A stretch of DNA of 64,000 bases from Candidatus Saccharimonadales bacterium (GCA_036388555.1 DASVRP010000008.1:91609-155608); one strand, 5' to 3'; numbered from the stretch's first letter, positions 9,061 to 52,702 are shown. Numbers and translations: made by a program. Notes: generated by a model from the sequence alone, not told the origin.

Positions 9061-9071
9061 GCAGCTATCTT

Positions 9072-9103
9072 AACAAAGAAAAACTCCTCGAAACAGAGGA
9101 GTT
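9072..9103 (-). terminator. Intrinsic terminator downstream of the 9175-9969 gene
   Basis: Minus strand reads AACTCCTC-TGTTTC-GAGGAGTT followed by TTTCTTTGTT. Confidence 0.6.
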
Positions 9104-9174
9104 CAATTGTATCCGACATGAGGCACCATAATAGGCATAAACGCAAGAATGCCTGGTATGTAGATTTTTAGATG

Positions 9175-9969: not shown

Positions 9970-10043
9970 GACGCTATCATTGCATAAAAATAAGCACTAT
10001 CATAGTTCTTATGCCTGGAGAGCCATTGTAGTCTCTATTAGAA

Positions 10044-10568: not shown

Positions 10569-10676
10569 GAGCCTATCATATCAAATAAAAAAATTCCAAA
10601 AACAGAGGAGTTTAGCTGTAACTTCTGGTAACTGGTTATTTCCGGCTATTCGACCGAAATCATAGAAGACCAACCA

Positions 10677-11093
10677 TTAAGGGTTGTAAAATTGTAGGCC
10701 TGCAATTAATTGATCAGCTGATATTTGATCTAATCCTTGACCTTTCGCATACGGCATCGTTCTTTCATAGTCTCCTATGTTGACCCTCACCCTTGCTTTA
10801 TTTTCAGAGTTGTACAGGTCTACTATTATAGGTTCAGAATCGGAAAGGTTGTCGGCGAGTTTATTATTGTTTATCATACTGTCCACTTTATTTTTATATT
10901 TGTCGCCTTGCCGGAAGTCAAAACCTTTACTTCTCAGATGAGCAAATATCTCCTTACCGTTATTCCGGTAGTTTCCATCAAGTTTATATATAAATGTTTT
11001 ACTAAGAGTGCAGTCAGTCTCATCGCCATTATTACTGCTCGAGCACAAAGGATCTGAGCTTTCGAAAACAGGCGTTCTATTTTGAAGCTGCAT
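10677..11093 (-). CDS. Hypothetical protein whose start codon abuts the IS element
   Basis: The track ORF 10677-11147 begins inside the IS. The native part starts at MQLQNRTPVF (ATG at 11093), which straddles the IS boundary and target duplication. Confidence 0.4.
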   Translation of the reverse strand: MQLQNRTPVFESSDPLCSSSNNGDETDCTLSKTFIYKLDGNYRNNGKEIFAHLRSKGFDFRQGDKYKNKVDSMINNNKLADNLSDSEPIIVDLYNSENKARVRVNIGDYERTMPYAKGQGLDQISADQLIAGLQFYNP

Positions 11094-35746: not shown

Positions 35747-36715
35747 CTACAGCTTCGACCAGATGGCTATCCAGTCGAGCTGCACGTTCCCGGCTACGCT
35801 GTTCGCCGGCACGGTGCCGTCCAGCGCCGTCTCGGTCTGCAACACCAGGTGCATCGGGGTATTGGGTATACGGCTGGTGCTGGTGCCGATCGTGGTTCCG
35901 TCCAGGATGAATCTCACTGACGATGGCCCCCACTCTATGATGGCGGTATGCCAGCTGGGATAGGTTGCGGATGTCGTGTAGCCGTCCTGGTCACCGCCCG
36001 AGGTGCCATTCTGGCGGTGCATGTATGCCTCGATAGTGCCGTTAAGGTTGCCTTCCGGAAAGTCTATTTCGCCGTCACGCGGCCAGGTCTCGCTATCCGG
36101 CCAGAGCAGCCAGGCTGTCTTGTAGCCAACGAGCGGATCGGCCCGGAAGCGCATGGCATAGCGGCCGTAGAGCTGTCCGTTGGGGATTCCAGGCAACTTC
36201 GGTACCGGCGCCGATACCATGTGTACGCCGTTTTCGGTATGGAGATACATATTCAGCAGCCCGTTCTGCTGACTGATGACTTTTGAGGGATAATAGGTGC
36301 CATTCCTGCTGGTATCTTTCCAGCCGTCTGGATACGCACCCCATTTGGCGCTGACAGCACCTGGAAAGCTGCCGACCGGTACGTTCGCGGTAAAGTCGTC
36401 GGTAAATATCTGCTTCCAGCCAGGCAGATCCCCGATCGGCATCGGCTGTCCGGACGGATTGGTGACTGGCGCGGCAAACCGCACGCCTGCCCCGCCCGAA
36501 GCCTGGCTGTCAGCCTGCGACGCGGCCGGACCGCTCAATGCGCCGCGCTCCGGCTCGGCGCTGATATAGGGCGTGGCAGCTTGTGAAACGAACCGTGCCG
36601 CCAGCCCGACGATGCTGCAGCACAGTATGACCAGGATTATGGTAATGTGTTTTGATCGTATATATTTCCGGCGTTGCATAGCACGTCTCCAAGCGCGGGG
36701 CGGCACCTGCATCAT
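35747..36715 (-). CDS. GH16-like glycoside hydrolase with shared N-terminal cassette
   Basis: 322-aa ORF. The cassette is AATPYISAEPERGALSGPAASQADSQASGGAGVRF. The catalytic motif is GEIDFPEG. YGRYAMRFRAD parallels YGRYSIRFKAT of 12600-13157. Confidence 0.7.
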   Translation of the reverse strand: MMQVPPRAWRRAMQRRKYIRSKHITIILVILCCSIVGLAARFVSQAATPYISAEPERGALSGPAASQADSQASGGAGVRFAAPVTNPSGQPMPIGDLPGWKQIFTDDFTANVPVGSFPGAVSAKWGAYPDGWKDTSRNGTYYPSKVISQQNGLLNMYLHTENGVHMVSAPVPKLPGIPNGQLYGRYAMRFRADPLVGYKTAWLLWPDSETWPRDGEIDFPEGNLNGTIEAYMHRQNGTSGGDQDGYTTSATYPSWHTAIIEWGPSSVRFILDGTTIGTSTSRIPNTPMHLVLQTETALDGTVPANSVAGNVQLDWIAIWSKL

Positions 36716-37048: not shown

Positions 37049-37876
37049 ATGATAATGCCTGTGCCGCGACCGATGCCGAACCTGCGATACCTCACGACAG
37101 TGCTGGCGGTCTGCCTGCTGGTAGCGTTCGCGGCAGCTGCAAAGCCTGTTCCGCACGAGCCACAAGCTCCATCGCTAACACACCTATCGGCTGCCACACT
37201 GGCGAATCCGCTGGATAGAGCACATAACCTACCGGGAGCCCTAGCCGCCCGCCAGTACAACTTGCTAAATGGCCGGGTTACGCTGCGTGACGACGGCATC
37301 TGGCAGCCCGCCCGCGGTGGTTACTGGTCGATGCAGCAGCGGTCATGCGGCCGCGGTATCATCCCGGACATGGACTGCCTGGACACCCGGATGTTTGTCT
37401 TGCAGCACGAACCGTATCGGAACCCAGACCAGTTCCAGGTCAATGTGACAGTGTTCAAGCGCGGCAGCACTCCGGTGCGCGACTGGACGATTGCGAATAT
37501 CGGACTGTACCCGACTGCCGAGCGGCTACATGACTACCACGTCGGCAGCTACCCGGCCTTCAGCTACGAAGCGCCGCTGGGCCCGGACGAGAAGCGGTTA
37601 GTCCGTACGATCGTCTGGCAGGACGTGGCCGTCGTCGTCCGGGCTACATTATTCAATCAACGCCATAATCATTACAGTGGCACTGGCAATTACCTGCAGT
37701 ACGGCGGTGAGATCGACCGGCTGACGCAGTCGATTGTCATCCGTGATGGCCGCATGCATGGCGACACGGACACCGGTACGCACATTGACGCTTATGGTAA
37801 TAACAGATACAATGAAGCTACTTTAGACCACAAACCCGTGAGCCGGCCCGATTATGAAGAGTTCCACACCCATTAA
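37049..37876 (+). CDS. Hypothetical secreted protein
   Basis: 275-aa ORF with a signal peptide (LRYLTTVLAVCLLVAFAAAAKP). Confidence 0.5.
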   Translation: MIMPVPRPMPNLRYLTTVLAVCLLVAFAAAAKPVPHEPQAPSLTHLSAATLANPLDRAHNLPGALAARQYNLLNGRVTLRDDGIWQPARGGYWSMQQRSCGRGIIPDMDCLDTRMFVLQHEPYRNPDQFQVNVTVFKRGSTPVRDWTIANIGLYPTAERLHDYHVGSYPAFSYEAPLGPDEKRLVRTIVWQDVAVVVRATLFNQRHNHYSGTGNYLQYGGEIDRLTQSIVIRDGRMHGDTDTGTHIDAYGNNRYNEATLDHKPVSRPDYEEFHTH

Positions 37877-38963
37877 GCGACCCCTTCAGGGGAACAAGCA
37901 GCGGATCTTACTGCTGGTACTCGCCCTGTTCGTCGCTGCCGGCAGCCTGGCTCTGCTGAGCCTGCGGGCCGCCGGGCCGTTCGTAGCTGTCGAGCCGGAA
38001 TCCGGCAGCCGGACGGCTCCGGCGGCCGGGATACAAGATACGACCGCCTCCGGCGGTCAAGCAGTCAGATTTGGTCCTGCCAGCAGCAGTACCAAATTCA
38101 CGCTGGTCGTCATGCCCGATACCCAGTTTACCGCTCAGTCGTGGCCGGCCGATTTCATGAACATGACCGCCTGGATACGTGACAAAGCCGCTGAGCTCAA
38201 TATCGCGTATGTACTGCATGAGGGCGACGTCCAGGAAAATCCCATCCCGCCGACCTATCAATATTTCGAGAATGCCCGCCGTGCCATGAACCAGCTCGAC
38301 GGCCATGTGCCGTACGTCGTCGCCATCGGCAACCATGATTTCGACGCCTGGTACACCGGTCAGAATGAAGGCATCGCCGCCGACCGCAGGGCGACCGTGT
38401 TCAACCGCTATTTCCCCGTCTCAAAGTTCCAGAACTGGCCGACATTCGGCAGCAGCCACCCGGCCGGCACGAACGATAATAGTTTCCATAAATTCAGAGC
38501 AGGCGGCACCGACTGGGGCATCGTCACACTCAAATTCAAGCCGACCGCCGCTGAGCTGGCCTGGGCCAACAGCATCGTCAGTGCTAATCCGACCCGCCGC
38601 TTCATTATCCTCACCCACGAATACCTCTTCGGCAACGGCACGCGGACGCCAGCCGGTACCCAGATGTGGAATGAGCTGGTGAGCAAATATAAGAACGTCC
38701 AGTTCGTCTTCTCGGGCCACGTCTATCCGACCAGCGCCCGCCGTGTCGACGCTGGCGTCAATGGCAACCAGGTACACCAGCTGCTCATCGATTACCAGGC
38801 ATACAGCGTCCGCGAGCCCAACAGCTACATCAGGCTCATGACATTCGATACCGCCGCCCGGACGATCACCGTCAAAAGCTATTCGCCGCCGTTCAACAAA
38901 TACATGACCGGCGCGGCCGATGACTTCGTGCTGACCGGTGTACCGTTTGGACCCGTGCAGTAG
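37854..38963 (+). CDS. Secreted calcineurin-like metallophosphoesterase with shared N-terminal cassette
   Basis: 369-aa ORF. The cassette is AAGPFVAVEPESGSRTAPAAGIQDTTASGGQAVRFG. Metallophosphatase motifs are VVMPDTQ, HEGDV, IGNHD, LTHE and SGHV. Confidence 0.7.
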   Translation: MKSSTPIKRPLQGNKQRILLLVLALFVAAGSLALLSLRAAGPFVAVEPESGSRTAPAAGIQDTTASGGQAVRFGPASSSTKFTLVVMPDTQFTAQSWPADFMNMTAWIRDKAAELNIAYVLHEGDVQENPIPPTYQYFENARRAMNQLDGHVPYVVAIGNHDFDAWYTGQNEGIAADRRATVFNRYFPVSKFQNWPTFGSSHPAGTNDNSFHKFRAGGTDWGIVTLKFKPTAAELAWANSIVSANPTRRFIILTHEYLFGNGTRTPAGTQMWNELVSKYKNVQFVFSGHVYPTSARRVDAGVNGNQVHQLLIDYQAYSVREPNSYIRLMTFDTAARTITVKSYSPPFNKYMTGAADDFVLTGVPFGPVQ

Positions 38964-39595: not shown

Positions 39596-40135
39596 TTAGC
39601 GGACAACATCAAAACTATTAAAGAACCTGCGCCACTGGTCGTCGCTGAGGTCCTTATCCGGATTCGCAAATAGCAGCGTACCTTTGGTATTCAGGACTGC
39701 CGACTGTCTGCCTTTGCGGCTTTCCGGCTTTGTCAGGTAGACAGTGCCTATAGCAGTCTCAAACTTTTTATATACTCTCATCTGCTCGACGACCTTGTCG
39801 TACACCTGTGGAATGTCTGTAAAATTTTCGGGGGTCGGCTGCTCGCTGACCGATACCCGTATGCCGTCTATAGGCGCATCAAACGACAACACTTTCAGTC
39901 CGCTGTCATATTTGATGCTGTTGGCATCTATCATCACCGTTTCCGCTGCCGGCAGAAGCAATGCCGAAGTGACCTGTTTCCTGATGGCAGCCGGTACCGG
40001 CGGATCCGGTCGCAGCAGCATGAACACGCCATAAATCAGGGAGACTGCCACTACCACTGCCAGTAGTGGTAGCAACCGCCGGAAATCAAGCCGGAACCGC
40101 GGCGTCCGGATCAGCGGAGCCGTATTACCGGACAT
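39596..40135 (-). CDS. Hypothetical membrane-anchored protein, last gene of the surface locus
   Basis: 179-aa ORF with an N-terminal TM segment (LLPLLAVVVAVSLIYGVFMLL). Its start overlaps the stop of the 1303-aa gene by 11 nt. Confidence 0.5.
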   Translation of the reverse strand: MSGNTAPLIRTPRFRLDFRRLLPLLAVVVAVSLIYGVFMLLRPDPPVPAAIRKQVTSALLLPAAETVMIDANSIKYDSGLKVLSFDAPIDGIRVSVSEQPTPENFTDIPQVYDKVVEQMRVYKKFETAIGTVYLTKPESRKGRQSAVLNTKGTLLFANPDKDLSDDQWRRFFNSFDVVR

Positions 40136-43100
40136 TTATGTTCACCAGTACAGACCCGCGGCAGGTATCGGCGTTCGCGGTCACACTACACTGCGTACCA
40201 GGGGCATTACGAGATGTTTGTGACATACCAAGAAGGTTGAATGGTATATCTGTCCGTGCCGTCGTAACGAGGGCGGCACTGGCGACATAGCCTGGAGTCG
40301 TTGTCGGGATAATGTAGAGGCCGGTCGTGGCGGTCGTGGCTTTGACGTAGGCTTGGCCGCTTGTAACGACGACGGCATTGACGACCGTTGCTGATATCGT
40401 ACCGCTGTAGGACACTAGCACACCCATGAACGGATCTGTAGCAGCCGCGGTCGGCACTGCACCCCCGACAGTCGTATTTGGCTTGACGGCAAAACCGATA
40501 TTGGAAAGTGTGTTGATGCTGGCTGCGGCTTTGGTGGATGTGGTGAATACTCTGGTATCGTATATATTGCCTATGCCGCCGCCTGTAGCAATCTGTTTGA
40601 TGGTAGCCAGGCAGATCGACGGCCTGTCGATGGACCAGTTGGCCGGCGTCGTCATCATCGTCGTTGACGTCTCAGTCGCGCTGGCAGTCAGGAACGTCGG
40701 CTGGGCACCGGGTGCTCCGATACACAGGTTCTGGAAGGCGTTAGCAGTTGCAGTTATACCGGTCGTATAGTCGGTAGCCTGCGCCGTTACGACATGCTTA
40801 CGGCCATAGGCGTACAGGGTGCATCCTGTCCATCGGACGGAGTTAACGACACTGCCCATATATACCTTGCATGGTCCGTCACTGGCGTCAGTCGCATTAA
40901 CACCGGCTACGTCGCCGGACGTCGTGCCGCTATCAGGTACGACACCGAACATTATCAGTCCCAGGCCGGCCGTGCTCATGACATCCTCCCAGCCGGCATT
41001 GACGCAGGCCCGGATAGCGTTCGTCGAGGTATTGTAATACATCGCACCCTGATTGAGTGTGGTGCTGCAAGACTCAGATTCGGCGAAGTCACTGTCCGAG
41101 TCCAGCTGAAGGCCTATCATCGTCGTATCCGTTGTAACGCTGCCTACCTGAATTCTGTTATTTACTGTATCGACGGAGAACATGTTGCTGGATGCGCTGT
41201 TCTGTATTTGGAAGGCCGATACCGAATTAGTCTTATTCTGAATGAAAACTGGCGTATTGATGGTGGCGTTGAAGCTGATAGCCCCTGCCCCGTATGCTCC
41301 GGCGACAGAGCCGGCCTCCAGCTGAACGCCATCGATATAGAACGTATGAGCCGTGGCACCCGTCTGGCGAATAGCAATATATGAGGCGCTCGTCTGTGCG
41401 GTTGCCGATGTCGTCAACATACAGATGTGACGGGTCCAGCCACCGACGATAACTGTCTGAGTGTTGATGCTCGAACAAGCCGTCGTCGCTGTGCCATCCG
41501 GTGAGTAGACAGCTGTCATATCGGTAAAGGCAGCGCTGGCAGCGTCCAGCCGGGAGTACCATGACAGGACGTATGGTGCCGAGCCGGCGACTGTGGCCAT
41601 GGGCGACAGGGCGGCGCTGTTGTTCAGGCTGAGGCGGGCGCCGTTGTTGGCAGTAGCAGCCGTCACAATTTTCAGTGAGTAGTCGCCATTGAGCGCGGTG
41701 CTCGAATCGCGGCTGATGCTGCCACCGGTCGTGGTGTAGCTCCAACCCTGGCTATTGACCTCGAAGCCGGCATAGCCGGCAAGCAGATTTGCGTCGGTGT
41801 TGTCGACGTTGAATACGCTGGCACCTCTGGCAGAAGTAACCTGAAAGGCATTTGCCGAGTTGCTGACCGGTTGTACCGTCAGGGGCGTCGATATCACTCC
41901 ACCGAGGGCAATCTCGCCGTCTTGATACACGGTCGTGCTGTTGGCATCTGTCTCCAGGGTAAAGCCGTCAACGTAAACGGTACGGGCGACGGCATCAGTC
42001 TGCTTGACATATATGTACGGAGATCCGGATACAGTACCGGTAGTGAACGAGCAGGTATAGCGACTCCAACCGTTCTTGGATACAGTGACGGCCGTGCGGC
42101 AAGCGGTATCGGTGCTGCCATTGTCTGCCCGGCCAAATGCAAATGTAGCGAAATCCGACGTACCAGGAGTGGCCCGAGCATAGAAGCTCAGTGTGTAGGT
42201 GGTAGCAGAAGTCAGCGCCACAACTTGTTTCGCACCATCATTAGCTGCTACATTTGGCAAGCGCAGCGAGTATGATCCGTTATGGAATTGCGTTGCGTCC
42301 TGTACCGGCGCGGCAGTGCCGCGGGCGGTCCATGTCGTACCAAGCGTCGCTTCGAAGCTTGGGTTGATCAGCAGGTTGTTGGAATTGTTACTAGCAGTAT
42401 CGATACTTAAAACTTTCGTACCGGAGGCGTTCTGCACCAGGAAACCATTTGCCGAGTCGACGCGGTTTCCAAAGGTCGCAGCACCCGTCGAGGATAACGT
42501 CATTACATCCGCGCCCTGCGGATCAGTGAAGTTGAGTGCTCCGGTAGCGTTCATATACATCGCGTAGCCGTTGCTCGCATGGTAGGCAGAATTACCAAAT
42601 ACCAAGCCGTACGGGCTATCGTCATCTGCCTGCAGCCGCAATAGTGAGTTCCTGTCGGTTGCCGTATTATTGGTAGCGATGGTACCGTTATCTACAATGG
42701 TCAGTTTTGAGTCGGTGGCAGCACCACCAATGCCGATCCGGCTGTTGTCGGTATCGGCCACGAAGAGATTGCTGGTGCCGGCGGCGTTTTGGATCTGGAA
42801 TGCCGTCGTCGAATCAGCATTATTCTTGAACACAGCCGTACCGTGCACCGTGGTTGTGATGCTGGTGGTGCCGCTGGTCTTGCCGAGCGTTATAGATGTC
42901 GCCGTCGTGCCGCCGATGCCGAGCGCGCCTGCCGCTGCGGCATCAAGCGTTGGCGACTTGAGCGCCGTGCCGAAGATACCGGTTCCGTTGACATTTATAC
43001 TGCCGACATCAGCCGTGCCCGGAGTACCGCCCTGCAGCGTGACTCCGCCGCCGGCGCAGGCGCCAAACTCTAGTGCGGTAGCTGAGGACGTCGAGCCGCT

Positions 43101-44036
43101 CGATGATTTCAGGCAGGTCACACCGGTCGCCCCGGCAGCTGGCATCGACAAGGTATAGCTGCCGGTCAGCCCCACTGAAGACAACGTTACGCTGCGGTTG
43201 TTGGCCGTACCGTCTCTAAAGACGATGCCGCCGGCGGCCGAAGTCGAGCCAAGGCTCAGCGCGCTACTGCCCTGCAGGCTTAGACTGAGGCCGGAGCCCA
43301 TGGTCGCGCTGTCAGCCAGAGTTATGCCGGTGGCATTGGTACCTCCGATGCTCAGCAGGCCGGAGGTGGCCGCGTCAAGCGTATTGCCCTGTAGCGACCC
43401 CCCGCTGGTGATGTTGCCGGTGACGTTCAGCGAGCCCGTCTGGGCGCCGCTCGGGCTGAGCTGGGCCAGGGAGCTGCCATCGATACCGTCGACCGTGTCA
43501 GCATTCATGGCATAGGGGCTGGCCCCGAGCGGACGGCGTGGCGTCATGACCTCGTTGCCGTCGTAGACGGCGCAGGAAGCGCCGGAGCAGGTCGCCGTAG
43601 CTGGTGTTGGCAGTTCGATTTCGAAGTAGAGCGGCTGTGTCGTAAACATGCTCGGAGTGAGCCCGGTGACGTCACCCAGCTGCACCGAGAAGATACCATT
43701 GGTCACCTGCACACGACTGCCGGCTTCGCGAACCTCGGTCCAGGGGTTGCTGCCGGCGGCCAGGGCGGTCCAGAGGCGGAATTTCATGTTGTACAGGCCG
43801 TCCGGCATGGTGTTGCCGGCGGTGTTGGTCAGCCGTCCCTGGAAGTTGACCTTGTAGGGAACTGTCTGGGCTGCTGACACGGTCGGTACAGACGCGCCGA
43901 CCACGGCGACGACACAGGCAAACAGCCCCACCAGGATGGGGGCAACTACAGCGAACCTTACCTTGCAGCGCCGGGCTGCAAGCGGCATATATCGACGAAG
44001 CATTTTCAATGCTTGCATTACTTCACCTAACTTCAC
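40125..44036 (-). CDS. Giant secreted fibre/adhesin-like protein with a tail-fibre-like N-terminal head and two CBM4/9-like jelly-roll modules
   Basis: 1303-aa ORF with a signal anchor, then VPYKVNFQGRLTNTAGNTMPDGLYNMKFRLW...VTNGIFSVQLG...YFEIEL. Two modules start LINPSFEATLG.. and GYAGFEVNSQGW.. and end ..VYVDGFTLE / ..FYIDGVQLE. Long Gly/Ser/Thr/Ala-rich beta repeats are also present. Confidence 0.65.
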   Translation of the reverse strand: MKLGEVMQALKMLRRYMPLAARRCKVRFAVVAPILVGLFACVVAVVGASVPTVSAAQTVPYKVNFQGRLTNTAGNTMPDGLYNMKFRLWTALAAGSNPWTEVREAGSRVQVTNGIFSVQLGDVTGLTPSMFTTQPLYFEIELPTPATATCSGASCAVYDGNEVMTPRRPLGASPYAMNADTVDGIDGSSLAQLSPSGAQTGSLNVTGNITSGGSLQGNTLDAATSGLLSIGGTNATGITLADSATMGSGLSLSLQGSSALSLGSTSAAGGIVFRDGTANNRSVTLSSVGLTGSYTLSMPAAGATGVTCLKSSSGSTSSATALEFGACAGGGVTLQGGTPGTADVGSINVNGTGIFGTALKSPTLDAAAAGALGIGGTTATSITLGKTSGTTSITTTVHGTAVFKNNADSTTAFQIQNAAGTSNLFVADTDNSRIGIGGAATDSKLTIVDNGTIATNNTATDRNSLLRLQADDDSPYGLVFGNSAYHASNGYAMYMNATGALNFTDPQGADVMTLSSTGAATFGNRVDSANGFLVQNASGTKVLSIDTASNNSNNLLINPSFEATLGTTWTARGTAAPVQDATQFHNGSYSLRLPNVAANDGAKQVVALTSATTYTLSFYARATPGTSDFATFAFGRADNGSTDTACRTAVTVSKNGWSRYTCSFTTGTVSGSPYIYVKQTDAVARTVYVDGFTLETDANSTTVYQDGEIALGGVISTPLTVQPVSNSANAFQVTSARGASVFNVDNTDANLLAGYAGFEVNSQGWSYTTTGGSISRDSSTALNGDYSLKIVTAATANNGARLSLNNSAALSPMATVAGSAPYVLSWYSRLDAASAAFTDMTAVYSPDGTATTACSSINTQTVIVGGWTRHICMLTTSATAQTSASYIAIRQTGATAHTFYIDGVQLEAGSVAGAYGAGAISFNATINTPVFIQNKTNSVSAFQIQNSASSNMFSVDTVNNRIQVGSVTTDTTMIGLQLDSDSDFAESESCSTTLNQGAMYYNTSTNAIRACVNAGWEDVMSTAGLGLIMFGVVPDSGTTSGDVAGVNATDASDGPCKVYMGSVVNSVRWTGCTLYAYGRKHVVTAQATDYTTGITATANAFQNLCIGAPGAQPTFLTASATETSTTMMTTPANWSIDRPSICLATIKQIATGGGIGNIYDTRVFTTSTKAAASINTLSNIGFAVKPNTTVGGAVPTAAATDPFMGVLVSYSGTISATVVNAVVVTSGQAYVKATTATTGLYIIPTTTPGYVASAALVTTARTDIPFNLLGMSQTSRNAPGTQCSVTANADTCRGSVLVNINVR

Positions 44037-44128
44037 TTATGCACAAGTTCCATTCAGTGGAAACTTAAGCATTATTATACACCAATTACGCTTATGTTAG
44101 TGAATTAAAAATGACCTGTCTGTGAATC

Positions 44129-45382
44129 TTATTGACCAGTCTTTAGCTTTTTATGTGACTTCTTGCGGGCGTTGACAGGCTTCGTCGATAACTGCTTAGT
44201 CGTCGGGGATTTCGCCGCAGGCTGTGGAGTAGGCGCGACCTCATCCGGCTCCACCGCTAGCTCAGGCGCCGTTGCAGGAGTCTTCGAACCAGCTGGCTTG
44301 CCTAGTGCGGCCTCGTCCTCCGTCATAACGACCGGATCCTCCGTGCCGCTCGCTTTGGTAGAACCGGTAGCATCGGCCGCGAGGTTATCCGGCGTATCGG
44401 CGTGCGAGACTTCCGGTTCGGTAGCCTGCGCTGTGGGCTCGGCTGGCGGCTCGTCAGGAACGGGGCCTGGGGCAGCATCTGCGGTGCCCTGCTCTAGCTC
44501 GGTCGGCTGTGGCGTTTTGCGGCGGCGCCTGCTGCGGCGTACCAGCAGCACCGTGAATACCATAAGCCCGGCTAACCCCAGCAGCACCCAGCGCCAGAAT
44601 CCAGTCACCACAACGGCCCACTTATCGACGCTGCTGCCTCCCGATGCTACGGTCAGCTTATACAAGCCGATCCGGCTAGCTGCCAGCTTGAATGGTATTT
44701 CGCGTGATACACCTGACATGACCAGTGGCGCATCGATCTGCTGCTTCAACTCACCGATCGGCCGGAGTGACACGGTGACTTTCGGAAAAAAGCCGCTTGA
44801 CGGCTCGACTGGTGCCGGGTTCTTCAGTGTCGCCGCCCCGCGCACTGCCTCGCCGATCTGGATGGGCGATACATCAAGCGATTGTATACTGATTCTGCGG
44901 GGGCCGGGCTGGCCGTTCTGGATCAGCAGCAGTGTGCCGACCTGGGCTGAGGGTACGATGCCGGCGCCTGCCGGGGATTTGGTGGCCGCAAAAATTGCCG
45001 CGAATATATCACCTTTCGGTAGCTTGTTGCTGTCGATAGCGAAGTAGACCCGGGCAGCCTCGCGCGGGCCGAGCTCAACTTCTTTCAGATCCAGCGTGAT
45101 GCCGCTGCTGATCACCTGGGAGGTAAAGAACCGCAGATTGCCTTGGCCGTCAGCCTGGCGGAAGCCGCGGACGTCCATGGTGACCGTTACTGCTACGGAT
45201 GAGGGATTCGAGACGTCCACGAAACCTTGTTTGCTCTTGCCTTGCTCCAGGGCCTCGCGGTACATCAGCGGCCGGATCTGCAGGCCTTCGGCATGTACCT
45301 CGGCCGGTGCTGCCAGCACTGCTCCGGCAGTCAGCGCCAGTGCCAGAGTGGCCGATACGAGCAACCTACGATGGAGTTTCAT
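44129..45382 (-). CDS. DUF916-like cell-surface anchor with a C-terminal TM segment and a long Pro/Ala/Thr-rich cytoplasmic tail
   Basis: 417-aa ORF with a signal peptide, LQIRPLMY.., GDIFAAIFAA, a TM segment (WRWVLLGLAGLMVFTVLLV) and RRSRRRRK, followed by a ~130-aa low-complexity tail. Confidence 0.55.
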   Translation of the reverse strand: MKLHRRLLVSATLALALTAGAVLAAPAEVHAEGLQIRPLMYREALEQGKSKQGFVDVSNPSSVAVTVTMDVRGFRQADGQGNLRFFTSQVISSGITLDLKEVELGPREAARVYFAIDSNKLPKGDIFAAIFAATKSPAGAGIVPSAQVGTLLLIQNGQPGPRRISIQSLDVSPIQIGEAVRGAATLKNPAPVEPSSGFFPKVTVSLRPIGELKQQIDAPLVMSGVSREIPFKLAASRIGLYKLTVASGGSSVDKWAVVVTGFWRWVLLGLAGLMVFTVLLVRRSRRRRKTPQPTELEQGTADAAPGPVPDEPPAEPTAQATEPEVSHADTPDNLAADATGSTKASGTEDPVVMTEDEAALGKPAGSKTPATAPELAVEPDEVAPTPQPAAKSPTTKQLSTKPVNARKKSHKKLKTGQ

Positions 45383-46780
45383 TTACGGCAGCACCGTCGC
45401 GGTGTAGGTCACCGTGTTCTGGTAATTGCCGGCAGGCAGTGACAGCGGTACGTCGAGCCGGTACTGGCTGCCTATGATGTCCTTGACGCCGCCGCTATAA
45501 CCGGATCGGCTGTACATGGTCGTGGCCGATCCCGGCAGCTGGGCATACTTGTAGTTCGGCCCGGTGCCCCACTTGGCATCCAGCGACGGCGCACTGGTCA
45601 GCGCAAATCCCAGGCCCTTTGTCGTGCCCTCCGTCCACAGCGCCGGCGTCCCGATCGATCCGCCTATCGGGCTGATGGTGTTGCCGCCGCTAGTCAACGG
45701 CTGGTTCTGCGAGATAGCCAGCGTATAGCCCGGCGCATCGGTCTGCACGATGGCGCGGGCCGCAACACTGACAGACGTGTTCGGCACCAGGTCCGCGAAG
45801 CTCAGCGAGCTGGCCAGGCCGGCGTTCTGGGCGGCGTATTCACGAGCGGCGTCCTTGTCGCTGAAGGCCTTGTCAAATACTTTGACTTCGTCTATCAACC
45901 CGTTGAACGAGTTGGAGAAATCATACTGTGCTCCGACGTTGATTTCACCGCCGCCACCCGGATTCGTCGTGTCTATGGACGCCGATGCTTCCGGCTGGCC
46001 ATCGACATATAGCCGCAGCGACCCGCCCGGACGGTCAATCACTCCCAGGACATGATGCCAGGCGCTGTTATTATAGACCGTGCCGCTACTGGTCGCCGCG
46101 TAATAGGTCGGTCCGGTACAGCTGTTTGGCCCCGAGGAAAATTCGAGGCTGATATTCCCCTGCGTATCCATAGACATCATCCAGCCTTTGCAGTTACCAT
46201 TCTTCCAGACAATGTATGATTTCTGGGATTGCGTTCCAGCCTTGATCCAGGCACTCACCGTACGGGCCTGGCCAGGTTCGGCATCGAGTACAGCATGGTT
46301 TCCTCCGTGCGCTAACTGCGTGGTTCCATTCAGGCTGAGCGCCTGGCCGAGCTTGCCGACCACCCGGCTGGGGCTACCGACAGTTGTCGCGTCGAGGGCG
46401 CCGCTGGCATTGTCGAACAGCTTGGTGCCCGTCGGTTCGTCCATAGGATAATGCAGCAGCAGGCTGGCCGGATGGACATTGAGCTGGATCGATTTCTCGA
46501 GTTGCGATACAAATCCAGAACCCAGCTTGTAACTGCCAGCTGATCCGTCACCCGTGACGGCTTCGCCACCGCTTGAGACCATTTTGTAGCTCGCAGAGCT
46601 GGTCGGGCCGCCGAAGCTGTTGCCGACGCCGGCGTCTATCTTATAGCTGGAGCTGTTATAGCTCTCGGCCGCTGCCAGGCCAGGAAACACAGCGGCACCT
46701 AGCAGACCCAGCGCGGCGATAGCCAGAACGGCTTTTGCCGCATCAACGCTGCCATATAAAACTCCCGTGACAACTCTCAT
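45383..46780 (-). CDS. Secreted protein: SYK-repeat N-terminus + LamG domain + WxL-like C-terminal domain
   Basis: 465-aa ORF. The LamG domain ends FNGLIDEVKVFDKAF. The C-terminus reads AGNYQNTVTYTATVLP, the same motif as the two 199-aa proteins. Confidence 0.6.
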   Translation of the reverse strand: MRVVTGVLYGSVDAAKAVLAIAALGLLGAAVFPGLAAAESYNSSSYKIDAGVGNSFGGPTSSASYKMVSSGGEAVTGDGSAGSYKLGSGFVSQLEKSIQLNVHPASLLLHYPMDEPTGTKLFDNASGALDATTVGSPSRVVGKLGQALSLNGTTQLAHGGNHAVLDAEPGQARTVSAWIKAGTQSQKSYIVWKNGNCKGWMMSMDTQGNISLEFSSGPNSCTGPTYYAATSSGTVYNNSAWHHVLGVIDRPGGSLRLYVDGQPEASASIDTTNPGGGGEINVGAQYDFSNSFNGLIDEVKVFDKAFSDKDAAREYAAQNAGLASSLSFADLVPNTSVSVAARAIVQTDAPGYTLAISQNQPLTSGGNTISPIGGSIGTPALWTEGTTKGLGFALTSAPSLDAKWGTGPNYKYAQLPGSATTMYSRSGYSGGVKDIIGSQYRLDVPLSLPAGNYQNTVTYTATVLP

Positions 46781-46810
46781 GCTTATCCCAGTCTAGCAAA
46801 TATCCAGCGC

Positions 46811-47650
46811 TTACACCACAAACGGTATGACGACCAGCAGAGCGCCGGCTATCCGCACGGCTGACAGCGGATGCCTGGTGCGTCCGGTCCATCGATTCAA
46901 AAATCCACGCTGCAGTAATACCGGCAGCAATGTTAACACAAACAGCCCTACGAGAACCGACAACGCCTTGGCAGTGTCGGCCGACCTGGTGGTGCTGCCG
47001 GTGCTCGTGCCATCTCCGGCTTCACCGCGCAGTATCTTTTCCAGGAAATCCGGCACCAGCGGGTTATTTGGACCAGCCGTTAGGGCTGCCTGGGCATCCC
47101 CCTGGCCTGCTACGCCCTGCTGCTGCGTTACCGCCGTTCCCTGGGGCCGGTTTGATGCCTGCCCGCCGGCCGGCAGACTCGTCGCGGTATCAGATCCGGT
47201 GCCCGGATTGAGCTGCGGGTGATAACTGATGACGACACTATCCTCATGTGTCTGCTGGCCGCAACTGTCCGAAGCGACCAGCTTGATGGTGTGTGTTCCC
47301 GGCTCCACTGAGACATCGATTGCGAACGTCTTCCCGCCCATACTGATGGCTGTCGTCGTACTGTACTGCCCGTCGACATAGACATTGATCTGCGAAATAC
47401 TGAACACGGTGCCTTCGACCTTCACGACCGGATCAGCTACCGTGCTGTCGCTCAGCGGCTTGGTGATACTGACACCCGATTCGTTCCCCTGCGGACAGAC
47501 CATGACCTCGATGCGCGATCCCTTCACTTCCTGGGCGGCAGCTGTCTGTCCGATGACGAGCGCCGTCAGTAATACCAGCACCATCACACCGGTCAGGCGA
47601 TAGACCAGCCTAGCGGCGCGATTTGCGATTGCGATAGCTTCGCAGCGCAT
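46811..47650 (-). CDS. Ig-like-domain membrane protein
   Basis: 279-aa ORF with a signal peptide, an Ig-like segment (VKVEGTVFSISQINVYVDGQY...GTHTIKLVASD), a low-complexity linker and two C-terminal hydrophobic segments. Confidence 0.5.
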   Translation of the reverse strand: MRCEAIAIANRAARLVYRLTGVMVLVLLTALVIGQTAAAQEVKGSRIEVMVCPQGNESGVSITKPLSDSTVADPVVKVEGTVFSISQINVYVDGQYSTTTAISMGGKTFAIDVSVEPGTHTIKLVASDSCGQQTHEDSVVISYHPQLNPGTGSDTATSLPAGGQASNRPQGTAVTQQQGVAGQGDAQAALTAGPNNPLVPDFLEKILRGEAGDGTSTGSTTRSADTAKALSVLVGLFVLTLLPVLLQRGFLNRWTGRTRHPLSAVRIAGALLVVIPFVV

Positions 47651-48533
47651 ATACAGCTCCGGCTGCCAGTGTTAGTAATGCCACGACGACGAACCATAGC
47701 GGCGCGATCAGCAGAAAGCCGCTGTTCTGGTGCTTCTGGTCGAGAAATGAGACATTTTGAGATACCCTGAAGATACCGAAGCCGGGTGCCTGCTTCCAGT
47801 ACATATCTATCCGCCGGGTCGTTTCGGGCAGCACGATCGGGTCACCGGTGTACGAGAATTTCTGGCGACCGAAGAGGTCCCGGGCGACCGTGCTGACGGT
47901 CGCATCAAAGTCAGCATTACCGGTGTTGGAAACCCGTGCGGCGCTGACCACCGGCGGACGGGCCTGCCACTTCGGCAGTATGAAGCCTTCAAGGCGTCCT
48001 TCGTTCCGGACCGTTCCGTTTACGGTCGCGTACATCAGGTTGCCGACCCGCTTCTGCCGGGCAACGCCGCTGGATCCGATCTCACGCTGCTGCGTCTCAG
48101 CGAAGAGCACGCCGTAGTGTCCACCCGGTGCGGCACCGGCTGGCACGCGGATTGTATAATTGACCGTTACTTTCTGGCCGGGTTCAACGCGGTATCGGGC
48201 CTTCTCGAATTGCACCCAGTTGTGCAGGTCGGTGTTCGGCCGGACGACACTGAAGTTCGGATCGTACTGCTCATTGCTGACGCTGTACGGCCGGGCATAG
48301 ACAGCAAAATCATAGCCGACGTCGCCGTCATTGATAATGTCCATGCTGTCGCGTCTGACGTCTCCGGCATTGATCTTGAATGATTCAGACGACGGTGATG
48401 CCGTGATACTTTCGCGCTCTGCATCACCTTGCTGGGCGACGGCGGATTGGCTTATGAGCAATATACTGAGAATGCTGCACGCCATGACGGCTATCGTAGA
48501 CCAATTAGCAGTGAGTCGTCTCCGGTACATCAT
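47610..48533 (-). CDS. DUF916/DUF3324-like (WxL-interacting, CscA-like) cell-surface protein
   Basis: 307-aa ORF with a signal peptide, FKINAGDVRRDSMDIINDGD, PGGHYGVLFAE, a second beta-sandwich region, a C-terminal TM segment (LWFVVVALLTLAAGAVYAL) and a basic tail (RSYRNRKSRR). Confidence 0.65.
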   Translation of the reverse strand: MMYRRRLTANWSTIAVMACSILSILLISQSAVAQQGDAERESITASPSSESFKINAGDVRRDSMDIINDGDVGYDFAVYARPYSVSNEQYDPNFSVVRPNTDLHNWVQFEKARYRVEPGQKVTVNYTIRVPAGAAPGGHYGVLFAETQQREIGSSGVARQKRVGNLMYATVNGTVRNEGRLEGFILPKWQARPPVVSAARVSNTGNADFDATVSTVARDLFGRQKFSYTGDPIVLPETTRRIDMYWKQAPGFGIFRVSQNVSFLDQKHQNSGFLLIAPLWFVVVALLTLAAGAVYALRSYRNRKSRR

Positions 48534-48646
48534 CCACCTATTCTACATGTATGCCGCATACTGTCAATCATGCTTACGCTAAAACCGGACCCCCATGGTA
48601 TGGCGGATCCGGTTTTGTCAGGTGGCAGAAACGGTGTAGATAACCG

Positions 48647-49246
48647 TTATTTGACGGTTGCCGTGTACGTCACGGTGTCCTTGTAGACGCCGTTCGCTTT
48701 GCTCGTGTTTACTTTGACAGCATATTTCACTGTCGTGACCTGCGCACTTGCAGTGGCAGTCGTCGACCGGATGTTCTGTGCTGCACCGCTGATAGGCATG
48801 CCGGCGTATGTCGCAGTGCCACTGCCCCCGAAGGTGCCAAGGTCATCGACGCGCCAGCCCCATGCGTTGTCGCTCATGGCAGCAGGAGTACCGTATGTAC
48901 CGGAGGTTACCGCCAGCGAATCGCCGTTGCTAGTTGTGCCGTCGTCCTTGAAGCCGGCCATGGTAGCCGTGCCGTCAGCACTGCTGAGCGTCAGGTTGTA
49001 GCCGTCAGAGTCATTGGAATCAACTGTGACGGTGTCACTAGCATTGGCAGATGTCGCCCCGGCTCCGGTCGGCGTGACCGATATGTTCACCGTACCCGAT
49101 GAAGTCACATTGATGACCGAAGCCACCGCCGCTTCCACTGAACTGTTAGCCGTAACGGCCGAAGCTCCGACTGGCACAGCTATGACAGCGGCCACGGCCG
49201 CTGCGACCGATAGATTAGCCAGCCGTCTGGCAGACAATCTCTTCAT
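48647..49246 (-). CDS. WxL-like secreted surface protein, tandem paralogue B
   Basis: 199-aa ORF with a signal peptide, DGYNLTLSSADGTATMAGFKDDG, AWGWRVDDLGTFG and the C-terminal GVYKDTVTYTATVK. Confidence 0.6.
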   Translation of the reverse strand: MKRLSARRLANLSVAAAVAAVIAVPVGASAVTANSSVEAAVASVINVTSSGTVNISVTPTGAGATSANASDTVTVDSNDSDGYNLTLSSADGTATMAGFKDDGTTSNGDSLAVTSGTYGTPAAMSDNAWGWRVDDLGTFGGSGTATYAGMPISGAAQNIRSTTATASAQVTTVKYAVKVNTSKANGVYKDTVTYTATVK

Positions 49247-49337
49247 ATTTTATCCTTGTTTTTATTTTTTAGGTGCAAAGTTAGTTTAACTAACATAAGC
49301 AGTATAGTCAACACCATCCCAGTTGCGACAAAACGGG

Positions 49338-49937
49338 TTACTTGGCCGTTGCCGTATATGTCACGGTATCTTTATAGACACCGTTCGGTTTGCTGGTATC
49401 GACTTTGACGGCGTATTTGACGGTCGTTACTTCGTTTGTAGCGGTAGCCGTGGTCGAGCGGATGTTCTGCGGTGAACTGTTCACCGGCATGCCGGCGAAG
49501 GTAGCCGTTCCCCCTGCACCGAATGTTCCGAGACTGTCGACACGCCAGCCCCATGAGTTGGCACTGAGTGCGGCTGGTGTCGCGTAGCTGCCGGTCGTAA
49601 CAGCCAGCGTCGCGCCGTTGCTGGTCACACCGTCGTCCTTGAAGCCAGCCATGGTAGCTGTGCCATCAGCACTACTGAGCGTCAGGTTGTAGCCATCAGC
49701 ATCGTTGGAGTTTACGGTGACGGTATCGCTGGCTGCGGTCGATTCAGCACCAGGCCCAGTCGGAGTTACGCTCAGCGCCACGGTACCCGATGATGTCACG
49801 GCAATCACGGACGATACCGTGGCCTCAATCGAGCTGCTGGCCGTCGCGGCCGATGCCCCAATGGGCGCTACTATTACAGCGGCCATTGCCGCCAACGCTA
49901 GATACTTACCTACCCGCTTACCAAATAACGATGTCAT
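49338..49937 (-). CDS. WxL-like secreted surface protein, tandem paralogue A
   Basis: 199-aa ORF, collinear with and highly similar to 48647-49246. Its C-terminus is GVYKDTVTYTATAK. Confidence 0.6.
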   Translation of the reverse strand: MTSLFGKRVGKYLALAAMAAVIVAPIGASAATASSSIEATVSSVIAVTSSGTVALSVTPTGPGAESTAASDTVTVNSNDADGYNLTLSSADGTATMAGFKDDGVTSNGATLAVTTGSYATPAALSANSWGWRVDSLGTFGAGGTATFAGMPVNSSPQNIRSTTATATNEVTTVKYAVKVDTSKPNGVYKDTVTYTATAK

Positions 49938-50020
49938 ATACAGTCACCTTTCTCGTTCCTTATGGTTAATAAGTATAGTAAGTAAAATAAGCGTAAGCGT
50001 CAAATAAATCGTCTATGTTA

Positions 50021-50707: not shown

Positions 50708-52702
50708 TTACCAGGTCCATTTGCTGAGCAAGATAGCCATATCAGCTGCGCCTACCGTGCCGTCTTTATTGAGGTCAGCCGCCACACTGTTTTGACCGTC
50801 TGTGCCTATCAGCTGCGACAGATCGAGAGCATTGACCCGTCCATCACCATTGATGTCACCATTGTTAGCTACCGGAGGAATAGCTGTAGTCGTGACCGTG
50901 AATGCGATGTTGGAACCGTCATGGTATATTCCGGCGCTGTCCTGATAGGTTGCGTAAGCATACCAGGAGCCTACCGGGTCGGTGGCCAGGATAGTCCGAC
51001 TAGCCCTTACTGTCAGCGTTGCGCCCGCAGGGATAGTATAGGGACCTGGAGTCGTTGATGTGAAGTCAAAATACGGGCCGCTGGCATTTGATCCGCCAGG
51101 ACCGCGACCGGCTATCACAACGGTGTTGATAGTCACGGCCGTGCTGCCGGTATTCTTGTATGTCACCGTGCCGCCGATAGTCTGACCTACGGCTACAGAA
51201 GCCTTATCCAGCACCAATGGTGTCGATATGGTCACGGCGCCAGCTGCCGGGTTCGGGGTTGGGGTCGGTGCGGGCGTAGGGGTTGGAGTAGGAGTGGGCG
51301 CTGGGGGCGGAGGCGTCACGACGCCACCCGGCCTGACCACCATGACAGTGACCGACATCTTCGGCAGTGCTATCTGCTTTGCCGCCGTATTGGTGTAAGC
51401 GCCGTCAGGTAATTTAACCGGCTGATCGTACGGGGCGGCCTGATTCGTCTGATAGAGCGAATATGACCCGCCGCTTATACCTTTCAGGTTGAGCAAGACC
51501 GTCTTGCTGTCAGTTTCTGATTTATTGATGAGTACGATGTTATACCCACCAGCTTCGTTATTGACGGCGAATATCTCGCCGGTTGCATCATTTTCTGACA
51601 CATTGTAGATCGTGTCTTTATAATGAGGCCATATCTTACCCCCTGTCCAGGCGGCGATAGCCCAATAAGCCGGCATCGGACTGGACGCCGGACGGTTATC
51701 CGGATTAACGGCACCAGCTTCGACCATCACTCCAAGCGGCCCGTTCTGCGACGCATATGGTAGACCCCGGCCACCAGACTGTAGTATATGGCCCAGTGCG
51801 CTCGTCATCCATACCGTATTGACGGTTGTGAAGAAGCGATTATTGCCACCGGCAGTACCATCCTGGTATCGCCATGAGAAATTCAGCTCGTCAACGTTGA
51901 TAGGACGGTCCCCGAGGCCGAGAGAATGTAAATCGCTGCGGATCTCACTGATTTCACGGGCATAACTCGGAGTTTCCGACAGAGCTTGTGCGGTAGATAT
52001 TGAATTGCTTCCCATAGCATAATGATGATAATCAATACCTGCCAGATCCTGGCCTAATCCAGCTGCAAAAGTTCTCATGGTAGCACGGTCATAGTAGGCC
52101 CAGACCGGCCCCCAAATTCTGAAGTTCGGGTTGATCGCCTTGCCCTCCTGTACGATCATCTTGGCTTTGGCTATCTCATCCTGGATGGATTTGCCCTGGT
52201 TGCCTATTTCGTTCGGGGCACTGTAATCAATCGTATTCGCCGTACCTAACGCCTGTATGATCCTGGTGGCATCACCCGGTTCTATATCATAATCATTGGT
52301 GCGGCCGCCGAGCACTGCCAGTATACGATATCCCCAGGATTGATACAGTCTGACAAGGGCAGGCACATCGAGTGTAGTCGGGCCGCCGCCTGCCGAGCTG
52401 GTTACACGGTTATTCCGCCAGCCCACGGGAATACGGATATAGCGGGCATCAAGCTTCTGTTCAGCAGCACTTTGGGCCGGGCTGGACAATGGGTTGGCGC
52501 CGTAGGTCGAAGATCCGATGCCGATGTCGTAGGGGTCAACTTTGCGGATCGTACTACTGAAATCAGCCGTAGCGGCGACGCCAAGGTCGGCCGCATGCGA
52601 CTCTTTGGAATTCTTACTGCCGATATATGATGTCGCACCTCCAATCACTAACAGACTCACAACACTGGCTCCATACATTAAAAACTTTTTGGACATCATC
52701 AC
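50708..52702 (-). CDS. Secreted clan GH-A-like glycoside hydrolase + Ig-like domain + dockerin-like C-terminus
   Basis: 664-aa ORF with a signal anchor, a TIM-barrel-like region containing SAPNEIGNQG (NE motif), a PPPPAPTPTPTPTPAPTPTPNP linker, and dockerin loops DINGDGRVNALDLSQL and DLNKDGTVGAADMAILLSKWTW. Confidence 0.6.
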   Translation of the reverse strand: MMMSKKFLMYGASVVSLLVIGGATSYIGSKNSKESHAADLGVAATADFSSTIRKVDPYDIGIGSSTYGANPLSSPAQSAAEQKLDARYIRIPVGWRNNRVTSSAGGGPTTLDVPALVRLYQSWGYRILAVLGGRTNDYDIEPGDATRIIQALGTANTIDYSAPNEIGNQGKSIQDEIAKAKMIVQEGKAINPNFRIWGPVWAYYDRATMRTFAAGLGQDLAGIDYHHYAMGSNSISTAQALSETPSYAREISEIRSDLHSLGLGDRPINVDELNFSWRYQDGTAGGNNRFFTTVNTVWMTSALGHILQSGGRGLPYASQNGPLGVMVEAGAVNPDNRPASSPMPAYWAIAAWTGGKIWPHYKDTIYNVSENDATGEIFAVNNEAGGYNIVLINKSETDSKTVLLNLKGISGGSYSLYQTNQAAPYDQPVKLPDGAYTNTAAKQIALPKMSVTVMVVRPGGVVTPPPPAPTPTPTPTPAPTPTPNPAAGAVTISTPLVLDKASVAVGQTIGGTVTYKNTGSTAVTINTVVIAGRGPGGSNASGPYFDFTSTTPGPYTIPAGATLTVRASRTILATDPVGSWYAYATYQDSAGIYHDGSNIAFTVTTTAIPPVANNGDINGDGRVNALDLSQLIGTDGQNSVAADLNKDGTVGAADMAILLSKWTW

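Follow-up and report, generated by a model that had tools for sequence, protein, structure and literature searches.

Saccharibacteria are epibionts of Actinobacteria and attach to their host bacteria by largely unexplained means. Among described systems, the closest to the locus analysed here is the Pam pilus, whose filaments were solved from the Saccharimonadia parasite Candidatus Mycosynbacter amalyticus (Troman et al. 2026 preprint, 10.64898/2026.03.03.709456). Its pilins PamA and PamB are two-domain proteins of 39-55 kDa joined by donor-strand exchange, each with a nine-strand N-terminal beta-sandwich that stabilises the filaments, a linker donor strand and a C-terminal domain. Further products of the operon are PamE, the single-domain tip PamT, the RbmA-like PamR, which is anchored by a transmembrane (TM) segment, and PamC and PamD, PapD/FimC-like chaperones with C-terminal TM helices for which a chaperone role is predicted; no usher is encoded, and pam operons, which occur mainly in Saccharimonadia, are adjoined by a conserved 'tail fibre-like protein' (10.64898/2026.03.03.709456). 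The second relevant group is formed by the WxL/Csc clusters of Lactobacillales, which encode a small WxL protein, a large WxL protein and a WxL-interacting protein (WxLIP) composed of DUF916, DUF3324 and a TM helix (PMC9772566, PMC10599100). Here, we compare both groups with an eight-gene surface locus of a Candidatus Saccharimonadales bacterium (GCA_036388555.1, DASVRP010000008.1:91609-155608), which lies within a stretch of 64,000 nucleotides, hereafter the window.

The locus encodes two small subunits of 199 aa, two membrane-anchored proteins of 307 and 417 aa, an immunoglobulin (Ig)-domain membrane protein of 279 aa, a large subunit of 465 aa, a secreted fibre of 1303 aa and a 179-aa protein (Table 1). 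In our best reading, the system is already known as a kind, the Pam-type pilus, and what is new are the short single-domain pilins, the tip with a LamG domain and the WxLIP kinship of the chaperones. We judge the chances to be somewhat better than even that the locus is a short-pilin variant of this pilus, usher-less, with anchored chaperones and a lectin tip. An initial annotation of the same DNA had proposed a probably undescribed apparatus; this has been overtaken by the Pam preprint and by the NCBIfam models for PamR (NF058578), PamT (NF058579, threshold 240 bits) and the pilin C-terminal domain (NF058581, CPR_Pam_pilin_C, threshold 55 bits), which describe the same kinds of parts. The preprint favours a donor-strand pilus over a static complex for non-covalent display.

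Conservation of the module across genomes

The chaperone alignment retrieved 78 loci when scanned against GTDB genomes, each species being represented by one genome. Sixty-one of them are close (34-56% identity) and belong almost all to Saccharimonadia; distant copies (23-29% identity) are found in Gracilibacteria, Moraniibacteriota, Wolfebacteria and other Patescibacteria, and one of the 78 loci sits on a 1.1-Mb contig labelled Acidimicrobium. The named homologues of the 307-aa protein are all from Saccharibacteria or Candidatus Chaera renei. The pam operon of M. amalyticus was not among the loci retrieved with this alignment.

Forty-nine of the close loci are informative, the other 12 being truncated by contig ends. 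The full order of pilin gene(s), 307-aa-type gene, Ig-domain membrane protein (Ig/TM) gene, tip gene and 417-aa-type gene was detected in 38 informative loci, and the remaining 11 show a short form (pilin, chaperone and Ig/TM). In the full-order loci, the Ig/TM gene is present in 29 of 38 and a fibre homologue lies downstream in 34, and one to three pilin genes are located directly upstream of the chaperone gene in 60 of the 61 close loci. The genes that flank the locus in the window were found in none of the 78 loci, thus the cluster travels as a unit. Seven genes form a conserved module in Saccharimonadia, kept in at least 60 species-level genomes of this class. The eighth gene of the proposed locus, encoding the 179-aa protein, is outside this module: only two of the 78 loci have homologues of it, which are weak matches encoded on the opposite strand. 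Both the gene order and the C-terminal motif described below are kept in relatives.

In five loci (L017, L019, L029, L039 and L059, at about 7700-11700), an additional, more divergent chaperone gene and a pilin gene in inverted orientation lie upstream of pilin, chaperone and Ig/TM, and the tip, second chaperone and fibre genes are absent downstream. One of these (L017) has a 1957-aa open reading frame (ORF) in their place, and the neighbours of its extra chaperone show no Pam matches. A Saccharimonadia-type array of two pilins, chaperone and Ig/TM (43% identity) was also observed on a 3.9-kb scaffold (L014, SEAL01000061.1) of a 'Chloroflexi' metagenome-assembled genome (MAG). This is most likely a mis-binned scaffold from the candidate phyla radiation (CPR) rather than an occurrence in Chloroflexi.

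The membrane-anchored chaperone-like proteins are relatives of WxLIP

Inspection of the sequences and a hydropathy scan show signal peptides, C-terminal TM helices and basic tails in the locus products. The 307-aa protein comprises a signal peptide, two beta-sandwiches (43-171 and 179-276), a TM helix (279-306) and a basic tail, and carries the motif PGGHYGVLFAE. It had been annotated as a DUF916/DUF3324-like anchor. A direct Pfam and NCBIfam scan of the eight proteins returned LamG, CBM_4_9 and weak Ig matches, and no WxL, DUF916 or DUF3324; the 307-aa and 417-aa proteins did not match PF06030 or PF11797 even at E<=1. Among 45 orthologues of the 307-aa protein, 17 have a sub-threshold match with PF06030 (DUF916/WxLIP_PGBD, best 8.9e-5) and none matches PF11797 (WxLIP_HBD). 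The profile of this family (A1) retrieved nothing relevant from PDB sequences, and an exact-sequence look-up of the 307-aa protein gave no record. The family is large, with 9447 representative clusters at 50% identity (E<=1e-3).

The AlphaFold2 (AF2) model of the 307-aa protein, built from 45 homologues, has a predicted local distance difference test score (pLDDT) of 91.4 and shows a signal helix, two beta-sandwiches and a C-terminal TM helix. The top Foldseek matches are the Enterococcus faecium WxLIP alone (9i1y) and with long WxL (9i25), at E 5e-13. They are followed by RbmA and then by the chaperones CfaA, CsuC, EcpB, CupB2, PapD and Caf1M (E 1e-8 to 5e-7), and the chaperone-usher chaperones reach target-normalised TM-scores of 0.5-0.55. 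The PDB title of 9i25 (WxLIP bound to long WxL) indicates that this fold binds its subunit.

A search from an Actinomycetota-labelled relative revealed a continuum of Actinomycetota MAG proteins, some of which are named 'P pilus assembly chaperone PapD' by the Joint Genome Institute (JGI) and five of which pass Pfam's PF06030 threshold. Using hhalign, the profile of the PF06030-passing set (A3) aligned with the Saccharimonadia family A1 over 258 columns (100%, E 2e-42) and, across both domains plus the TM helix, with six true DUF916/DUF3324 proteins of Lactobacillales plasmids (98.3%, E 2e-14); it also matched EfmWxLIP1 in PDB (E 5e-4). When A1 is compared directly with true WxLIP, the match is weaker (74%) and limited to domain 1. 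The fold match and the chain of profiles to true WxLIP thus establish that the anchor assignment in the initial annotation was correct: the 307-aa protein is a DUF916/DUF3324-type (WxLIP) anchor, with full-length homology via intermediates. The chaperones of the whole Pam-type class are relatives of WxLIP/DUF916 proteins and are found in Actinomycetota too.

The 417-aa protein had been described as repeating the plan of the 307-aa protein with an added tail. Its alignment with A1 (hhalign 95.3%, E 2e-8, 215 columns) identifies it as a distant paralogue, likewise membrane-anchored and with two beta-sandwich domains. Its TM helix was located at 261-284 by hydropathy scan, and a Pro/Ala/Thr/Glu-rich cytoplasmic tail of ~130 aa follows (codons at window 44129-44560). 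This tail is real but lineage-specific, because the orthologous ORFs are ~300 aa long. The tail also yields a spurious low-complexity match to GltJ.

A minimal three-gene version outside the CPR was observed on a 1.1-Mb contig of a MAG labelled Acidimicrobium ferrooxidans (L078, DYIU01000001.1, 8479-15134). Two genes for small secreted W-x-L/I proteins (with endings ..HTYTALQI and ..THTYTVTQP) precede one for a chaperone-like protein with a TM anchor, an acidic tail and the motif PGGHYGVIFFE, and a BNR/IPT-type protein of 1313 aa is encoded next. Close homologues of this chaperone come from Actinomycetota, Geothermincolia and Subteraquimicrobiales MAGs.

Small subunits and the shared C-terminal motif

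The two 199-aa proteins share 73% identity (145/199). Subunit 1 matches VF572_03775 from a Candidatus Saccharimonadales MAG with 100% identity, and subunit 2 is identical to the cluster representative P0126 (NCBI name VF572_03770). Subunit 1 consists of a Sec signal peptide (~1-30), a conserved N-terminal extension (~31-66) and an Ig-like pilin domain (67-199). The two proteins end in GVYKDTVTYTATAK (subunit 1) and GVYKDTVTYTATVK (subunit 2) and the 465-aa protein in GNYQNTVTYTATVLP, and the ending common to the three is G-x-Y-x-x-T-V-T-Y-T-A-T. This shared motif, already noticed in the initial annotation, was confirmed in 49 pilin homologues: conservation peaks in the last 14 residues (mean identity 0.80), and Y188, Y194, T195 and A196 are invariant despite homologues falling to about 42% identity, which excludes chance. 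Among 6699 stop-to-stop ORFs from the 78 loci, the motif was found at the C-terminus of 53, of which 51 are orthologues of the pilins or the tip.

In the AF2 model of the 199-aa protein (pLDDT 84), residues 67-199 form a compact beta domain and confidence is low over the first ~ten mature residues; in this monomer model the N-terminal extension is of low confidence, although conserved in sequence (mean identity 0.63). The Foldseek matches are nearly all chaperone-usher pilins (CfaB, CsuA/B, FimA, FimG, FimF and Caf1), with TasA found too, and the target-normalised TM-score with CsuA/B is 0.63. CPR_Pam_pilin_C matches residues 67-199 of subunit 1 (E 0.038), the two window pilins scoring 14.1 and 9.4 bits, below the cutoff. 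The same model matches 34 of the 49 homologues over the whole domain (best E 1e-9), again with every observed score below the cutoff, and the Csu pilin family SCPU is weakly matched by four of the 49. Nothing relevant was retrieved from PDB sequences with the pilin family profile (A2), and only chance-like matches with profile A4.

The small subunits had also been proposed to be divergent WxL proteins, which our results do not support. No member of the pilin family (0/49) matches the Pfam WxL model PF13731, hhalign gave 0.9% probability for A2 against six true small WxL proteins from Lactobacillales plasmids, and no WxL chain is present in the top 50 PDB folds, the closest being chaperone-usher pilins. 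A WxL domain identity is thus unsupported by these comparisons. Of the family assignments made initially, profile searches bear out the anchors, which reach DUF916/DUF3324 through intermediates, and not the pilins, which fail WxL.

The WxL motif positions read G-Y-x-L and T-Y-T-A in the pilins. Small proteins encoded just upstream of the Actinomycetota-type chaperones have N-W-x-L-x-V-[ST]-K-[ND]-x-D-L and end in Y-[ST]-A-x-H-T-[YF]. They align with the window pilin family over the full length (94.9%, E 4e-8), with their W-x-L at the pilins' invariant G82-Y83-x-L85, and with true WxL proteins over the last 34 columns only (65.6%). We also observed two annotated WxL proteins (L084 4167-4766, from Pediococcus inopinatus plasmid pCM-BB2-1, and L086 2676-3266) in which the first motif reads G-Y-T-V and not G-W-x-L, thus the first Trp is not invariant even in Lactobacillales. 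That W-x-L turned into Y-x-L / T-Y-T-A is, from these alignments, plausible but not demonstrated.

Large subunit, Ig-domain protein and fibre

The 465-aa protein consists of a scaffold (residues 1-111 and 326-465) and a LamG insert (about 112-325), the previously noted LamG domain being confirmed by a Laminin_G_3 match at 1e-23 (Pfam). Residues 19-111 match positions 5-98 of the NCBIfam PamT model (26 bits, E 4.7e-6), far from its cutoff of 240, and the protein is homologous to the pilin domain over residues 347-465 (BLASTP 1e-7, hhalign 95.4%). The orthologues in three loci (L011, L004 and L060) are PamT-sized and lack exactly the LamG segment, and those of other lineages carry longer inserts. 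LamG is thus a lineage-variable insertion into a conserved tip-subunit scaffold, and such a variable insert is expected of a receptor-binding tip. Neither the 465-aa protein nor the fibre matched any PDB sequence.

The 279-aa protein has a signal peptide, one Ig-like domain (~60-140, with weak Big_7 and Glucodextran_B matches), a low-complexity linker of ~90 aa and two C-terminal hydrophobic segments. It does not match the PamR model at E<=1. By analogy with Pam operons, it is a candidate anchor or terminator of the fibre in the position of PamR.

The fibre encoded downstream comprises an N-terminal signal anchor and a CBM_4_9 / GTA-spike-fibre-like module (552-701), and contains 18 Cys. Two carbohydrate-binding modules (CBMs) had been suggested for this protein. 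Pfam detects a single one (CBM_4_9, 3e-16) and a self-BLAST showed no internal repeat of it, the second being only hinted at by the two stretches matched by NCBIfam GTA_spike_fiber. A phage-tail-fibre-like head had also been described, for which the PHROGs search, with no match to the fibre, gives no support.

Comparison with Pam and chaperone-usher pili

The window locus resembles the Pam system in belonging to the class Saccharimonadia, in Sec-dependent export and in encoding the pilins in the same operon. Both have two PapD-like, TM-anchored chaperones and no usher, and the Pfam scan detected no usher-like protein among the eight products. The 465-aa tip is PamT-like, the C-terminal domain of the pilins is weakly recognised by NF058581, a membrane-anchored Ig/FnIII-type protein is encoded after the chaperone gene and a tail-fibre-like gene is a neighbour. 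The window locus differs in that its pilins have 199 aa with one domain and contain no Cys, its tip carries an inserted LamG, and its 279-aa protein has a single Ig-like domain and no PamR match, although position and topology are analogous.

One metagenomic locus (L081 545-3977, JGI metagenome 3300086419) encodes a pilin, a chaperone and a PamR-like protein in a row. The pilin has 355 aa, a full-domain Pam_pilin_C match (36 bits) and the ending GTYTTTVIYTATPVF; the chaperone passes the Pfam threshold for WxLIP_PGBD (PF06030, 29.8 bits), and the PamR-like protein scores 93.8 bits (E 8.5e-27). This locus bridges Pam operons and the window-type/DUF916 systems.

Chaperone-usher pili (Pap/Fim, Csu and CFA/I) share with the window locus the two-Ig chaperone fold and the pilin fold, which are best or near-best structural matches, a C-terminal strand with alternating hydrophobics and a Gly 14 residues from the end, and a lectin-bearing tip subunit. 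Unlike them, the window locus has no usher and its organism no outer membrane, the chaperones are TM-anchored rather than soluble in the periplasm, and the likeness in sequence is limited to weak SCPU and EcpB_C matches. A sortase-dependent pilus was rejected, as LPXTG-like motifs are absent save chance NPxTG/LAxTG strings and the pilins have no Cys.

In the short-pilin Pam-type pilus that we favour, all products carry signal peptides and would be exported by Sec across the single membrane. The 307-aa and 417-aa proteins would remain held in the membrane by their C-terminal TM helix and serve as PapD/WxLIP-like chaperones, with one strand of the first beta-sandwich filling the open groove of the Ig-like subunits, which would be bordered by the invariant C-terminal strand ..G-x-Y-x-D-T-V-T-Y-T-A-T. 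The 199-aa subunits, with their N-terminal extension and one pilin domain, may then polymerise head to tail by donor-strand exchange. The PamT-like 465-aa subunit is predicted to cap the distal end, where its inserted LamG lectin could bind a glycan of the host cell, and the 279-aa protein, with its Ig domain, long linker and TM segments, would terminate and anchor the fibre. The CBM-bearing 1303-aa fibre is probably a co-conserved second adhesin associated with the pilus locus.

Several points weigh against this reading. For this locus, no filament has been seen. The Pam models remain far below threshold (pilin_C 14 vs 55 bits, PamT 26 vs 240, PamR nil), and the pilins do not have the nine-strand N-terminal domain credited with stabilising Pam filaments. 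The Foldseek E-values of the pilin are weak (best 7e-3), and donor-strand exchange is inferred. A scan of 10 flanking ORFs showed no ATP-synthase neighbourhood. Finally, WxLIP, the closest solved relative of the chaperone, is from a presumed static, peptidoglycan-bound complex and not from a polymer (PMC9772566, PMC10599100).

Alternatives to a pilus

The last point leads to the alternative that the locus encodes a non-polymerising display complex of WxL/Csc type, in which the subunits are held with the anchored WxLIP-like protein and the wall, and present LamG and perhaps the fibre. It shares most of its parts with the pilus and differs only in whether the small subunits polymerise. Its main support is the 307-aa protein, whose best structural matches are WxLIP, including the complex with long WxL, and whose family is homologous over the full length to true DUF916/DUF3324 proteins via intermediates. 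The envelope is monoderm in both systems, and the layouts are alike. In real WxL loci of Lactobacillales plasmids, the small WxL gene lies directly upstream of the WxLIP gene; the window locus likewise has its small subunit genes directly upstream of a WxLIP-like gene and, as in WxL/Csc clusters, a large subunit in which an adhesin or lectin domain precedes the shared C-terminal domain. Pilins and WxL proteins have the C-terminal strand pattern Y-x-x-T-[LV]-T-[WY]-T-[LA] in common, and the W-x-L of the Actinomycetota small proteins and the G-Y-T-V of an annotated Pediococcus WxL protein fall at the G-Y-x-L position of the pilins.

The layout described by the initial annotation holds for the small/small/large arrangement with a shared C-terminal domain, but this domain is not recognisably WxL, both Trp being replaced. 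There are two WxLIP-like genes instead of one, none of the locus proteins is an LPXTG partner, the organism belongs to the CPR and not to Bacillota, and the window proteins themselves have no PF06030 or PF11797 match. The pilin family matches neither the WxL model nor true small WxL proteins, its intermediates reach the latter over the last columns only, and chaperone-usher pilins dominate its structural matches. In addition, the weak recurrent matches of the pilins go to the Pam pilin domain, which is proven to polymerise in a related CPR bacterium. We therefore consider a static display complex rather unlikely, while giving it appreciable weight.

An assembly of merely neighbouring, independent envelope or secreted proteins, or a remnant of prophage tail fibres, is very improbable and strongly disfavoured: several genes are preceded by promoter-like sites, the fibre matches a phage/gene transfer agent 'head spike fibre' model and the LamG region matches PHROGs virion proteins, but the order from pilin to fibre is kept in 38 of the 49 informative genomes at 34-56% identity despite differing flanks, a domain and a motif are common to the subunits, no PHROGs match was obtained for the fibre or the other scanned proteins, those of the LamG protein being confined to the LamG region, and the GC content and the housekeeping flanks are as expected of the chromosome. 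For the same reasons of missing PHROGs matches to the fibre, housekeeping flanks and even GC content, a phage origin of the locus was discarded.

Relationship between the systems

The Pam-type short-pilin cluster would supply concrete candidates for the attachment of Saccharibacteria: a fibre of 17-kDa subunits, a lectin tip with a lineage-variable binding domain and a giant CBM-bearing adhesin. Its chaperone family is tied by sequence and structure to the WxLIP of enterococci, listeriae and lactobacilli, which links a 20-year-old unexplained Gram-positive surface locus with a newly discovered pilus and makes a shared strand-complementation mechanism testable. This link between WxLIP and Pam was made in neither body of literature, and the Pam preprint contains no mention of WxL or DUF916 (10.64898/2026.03.03.709456).

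A broader proposal, which we put forward tentatively and hold to be rather more doubtful than the pilus itself, is that WxL/Csc clusters, the Actinomycetota mini-clusters (Geothermincolia-type MAGs), CPR Pam pili and the short-pilin cluster descend from one ancient monoderm pilus system with anchored chaperones and no usher. If so, the W-x-L and Y-x-L / T-Y-T-A strands would line the donor-strand groove, and WxL proteins, long seen as peptidoglycan-binding anchors, would be pilin-like, handled by strand exchange and perhaps polymerised. Pam-type pilus machinery would then not be exclusive to the CPR.

Layout of the locus and its surroundings

Translation of the window places all eight ORFs on the minus strand, co-directional and packed exactly as the initial annotation had described (Table 1). 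Besides the overlap of the 179-aa and fibre genes (40125-40135), two ORFs abut at 45382/45383 and two overlap by 41 nt (47610-47650). The 179-aa gene is probably co-transcribed with the fibre gene.

Table 1 Genes and promoter-like sites of the locus, with positions counted in the window
Feature	Size (aa)	Position	Strand	Remarks
Small subunit 1	199	49338..49937	-	putative major pilin
Small subunit 2	199	48647..49246	-	tandem paralogue of subunit 1
Membrane-anchored chaperone-like protein	307	47610..48533	-	WxLIP/PapD-like
Ig-domain membrane protein	279	46811..47650	-	
Large subunit	465	45383..46780	-	PamT-like tip scaffold with inserted LamG
Second membrane-anchored chaperone-like protein	417	44129..45382	-	
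Giant secreted fibre/adhesin	1303	40125..44036	-	
Protein with N-terminal TM helix	179	39596..40135	-	overlaps the fibre stop by 11 nt
Promoter-like hexamers upstream of first pilin gene		49975..50003	-	9/12
Promoter-like hexamers upstream of second pilin gene		49283..49311	-	9/12
Promoter-like site upstream of 307-aa gene		48540..48567	-	TTGACA-16-TAGAAT, 11/12, strongest
Promoter-like hexamers upstream of fibre gene		44071..44100	-	9/12

Promoters were scanned with a sigma-70-like hexamer consensus, scored as matches out of 12, which may not be the consensus of CPR bacteria. The presence of promoter-like sites before the pilin, 307-aa and fibre genes makes one transcript for the whole locus unlikely, and a separate site before each pilin gene fits what would be expected of highly expressed major subunits. 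An Rfam search of the whole 64-kb window detected no family at gathering score (no tRNA, rRNA, riboswitch or leader).

The flanks contain housekeeping genes (isoleucyl-tRNA synthetase, FtsZ, FtsA and class II ribonucleotide reductase), and the GC content of the locus is that of its surroundings. With homologues that are Saccharibacterial, this indicates that the locus is chromosomal and owned by the CPR bacterium.

Three secreted enzymes flank the locus: a glycoside hydrolase of family GH16 (window 35747-36715), a calcineurin-like phosphoesterase (37854-38963) and a 664-aa dockerin protein (50708-52702). The first two have an N-terminal segment in common (..EPE.G....PAA....ASGG..VRF..). The 664-aa protein carries a Pro/Thr linker and a C-terminal type I dockerin, which is unusual for a Saccharimonadales genome. 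Farther away, GC content falls to 0.44-0.51 at 2-12 kb of the window, compared with 0.54-0.60 elsewhere, and this region may be a foreign island.

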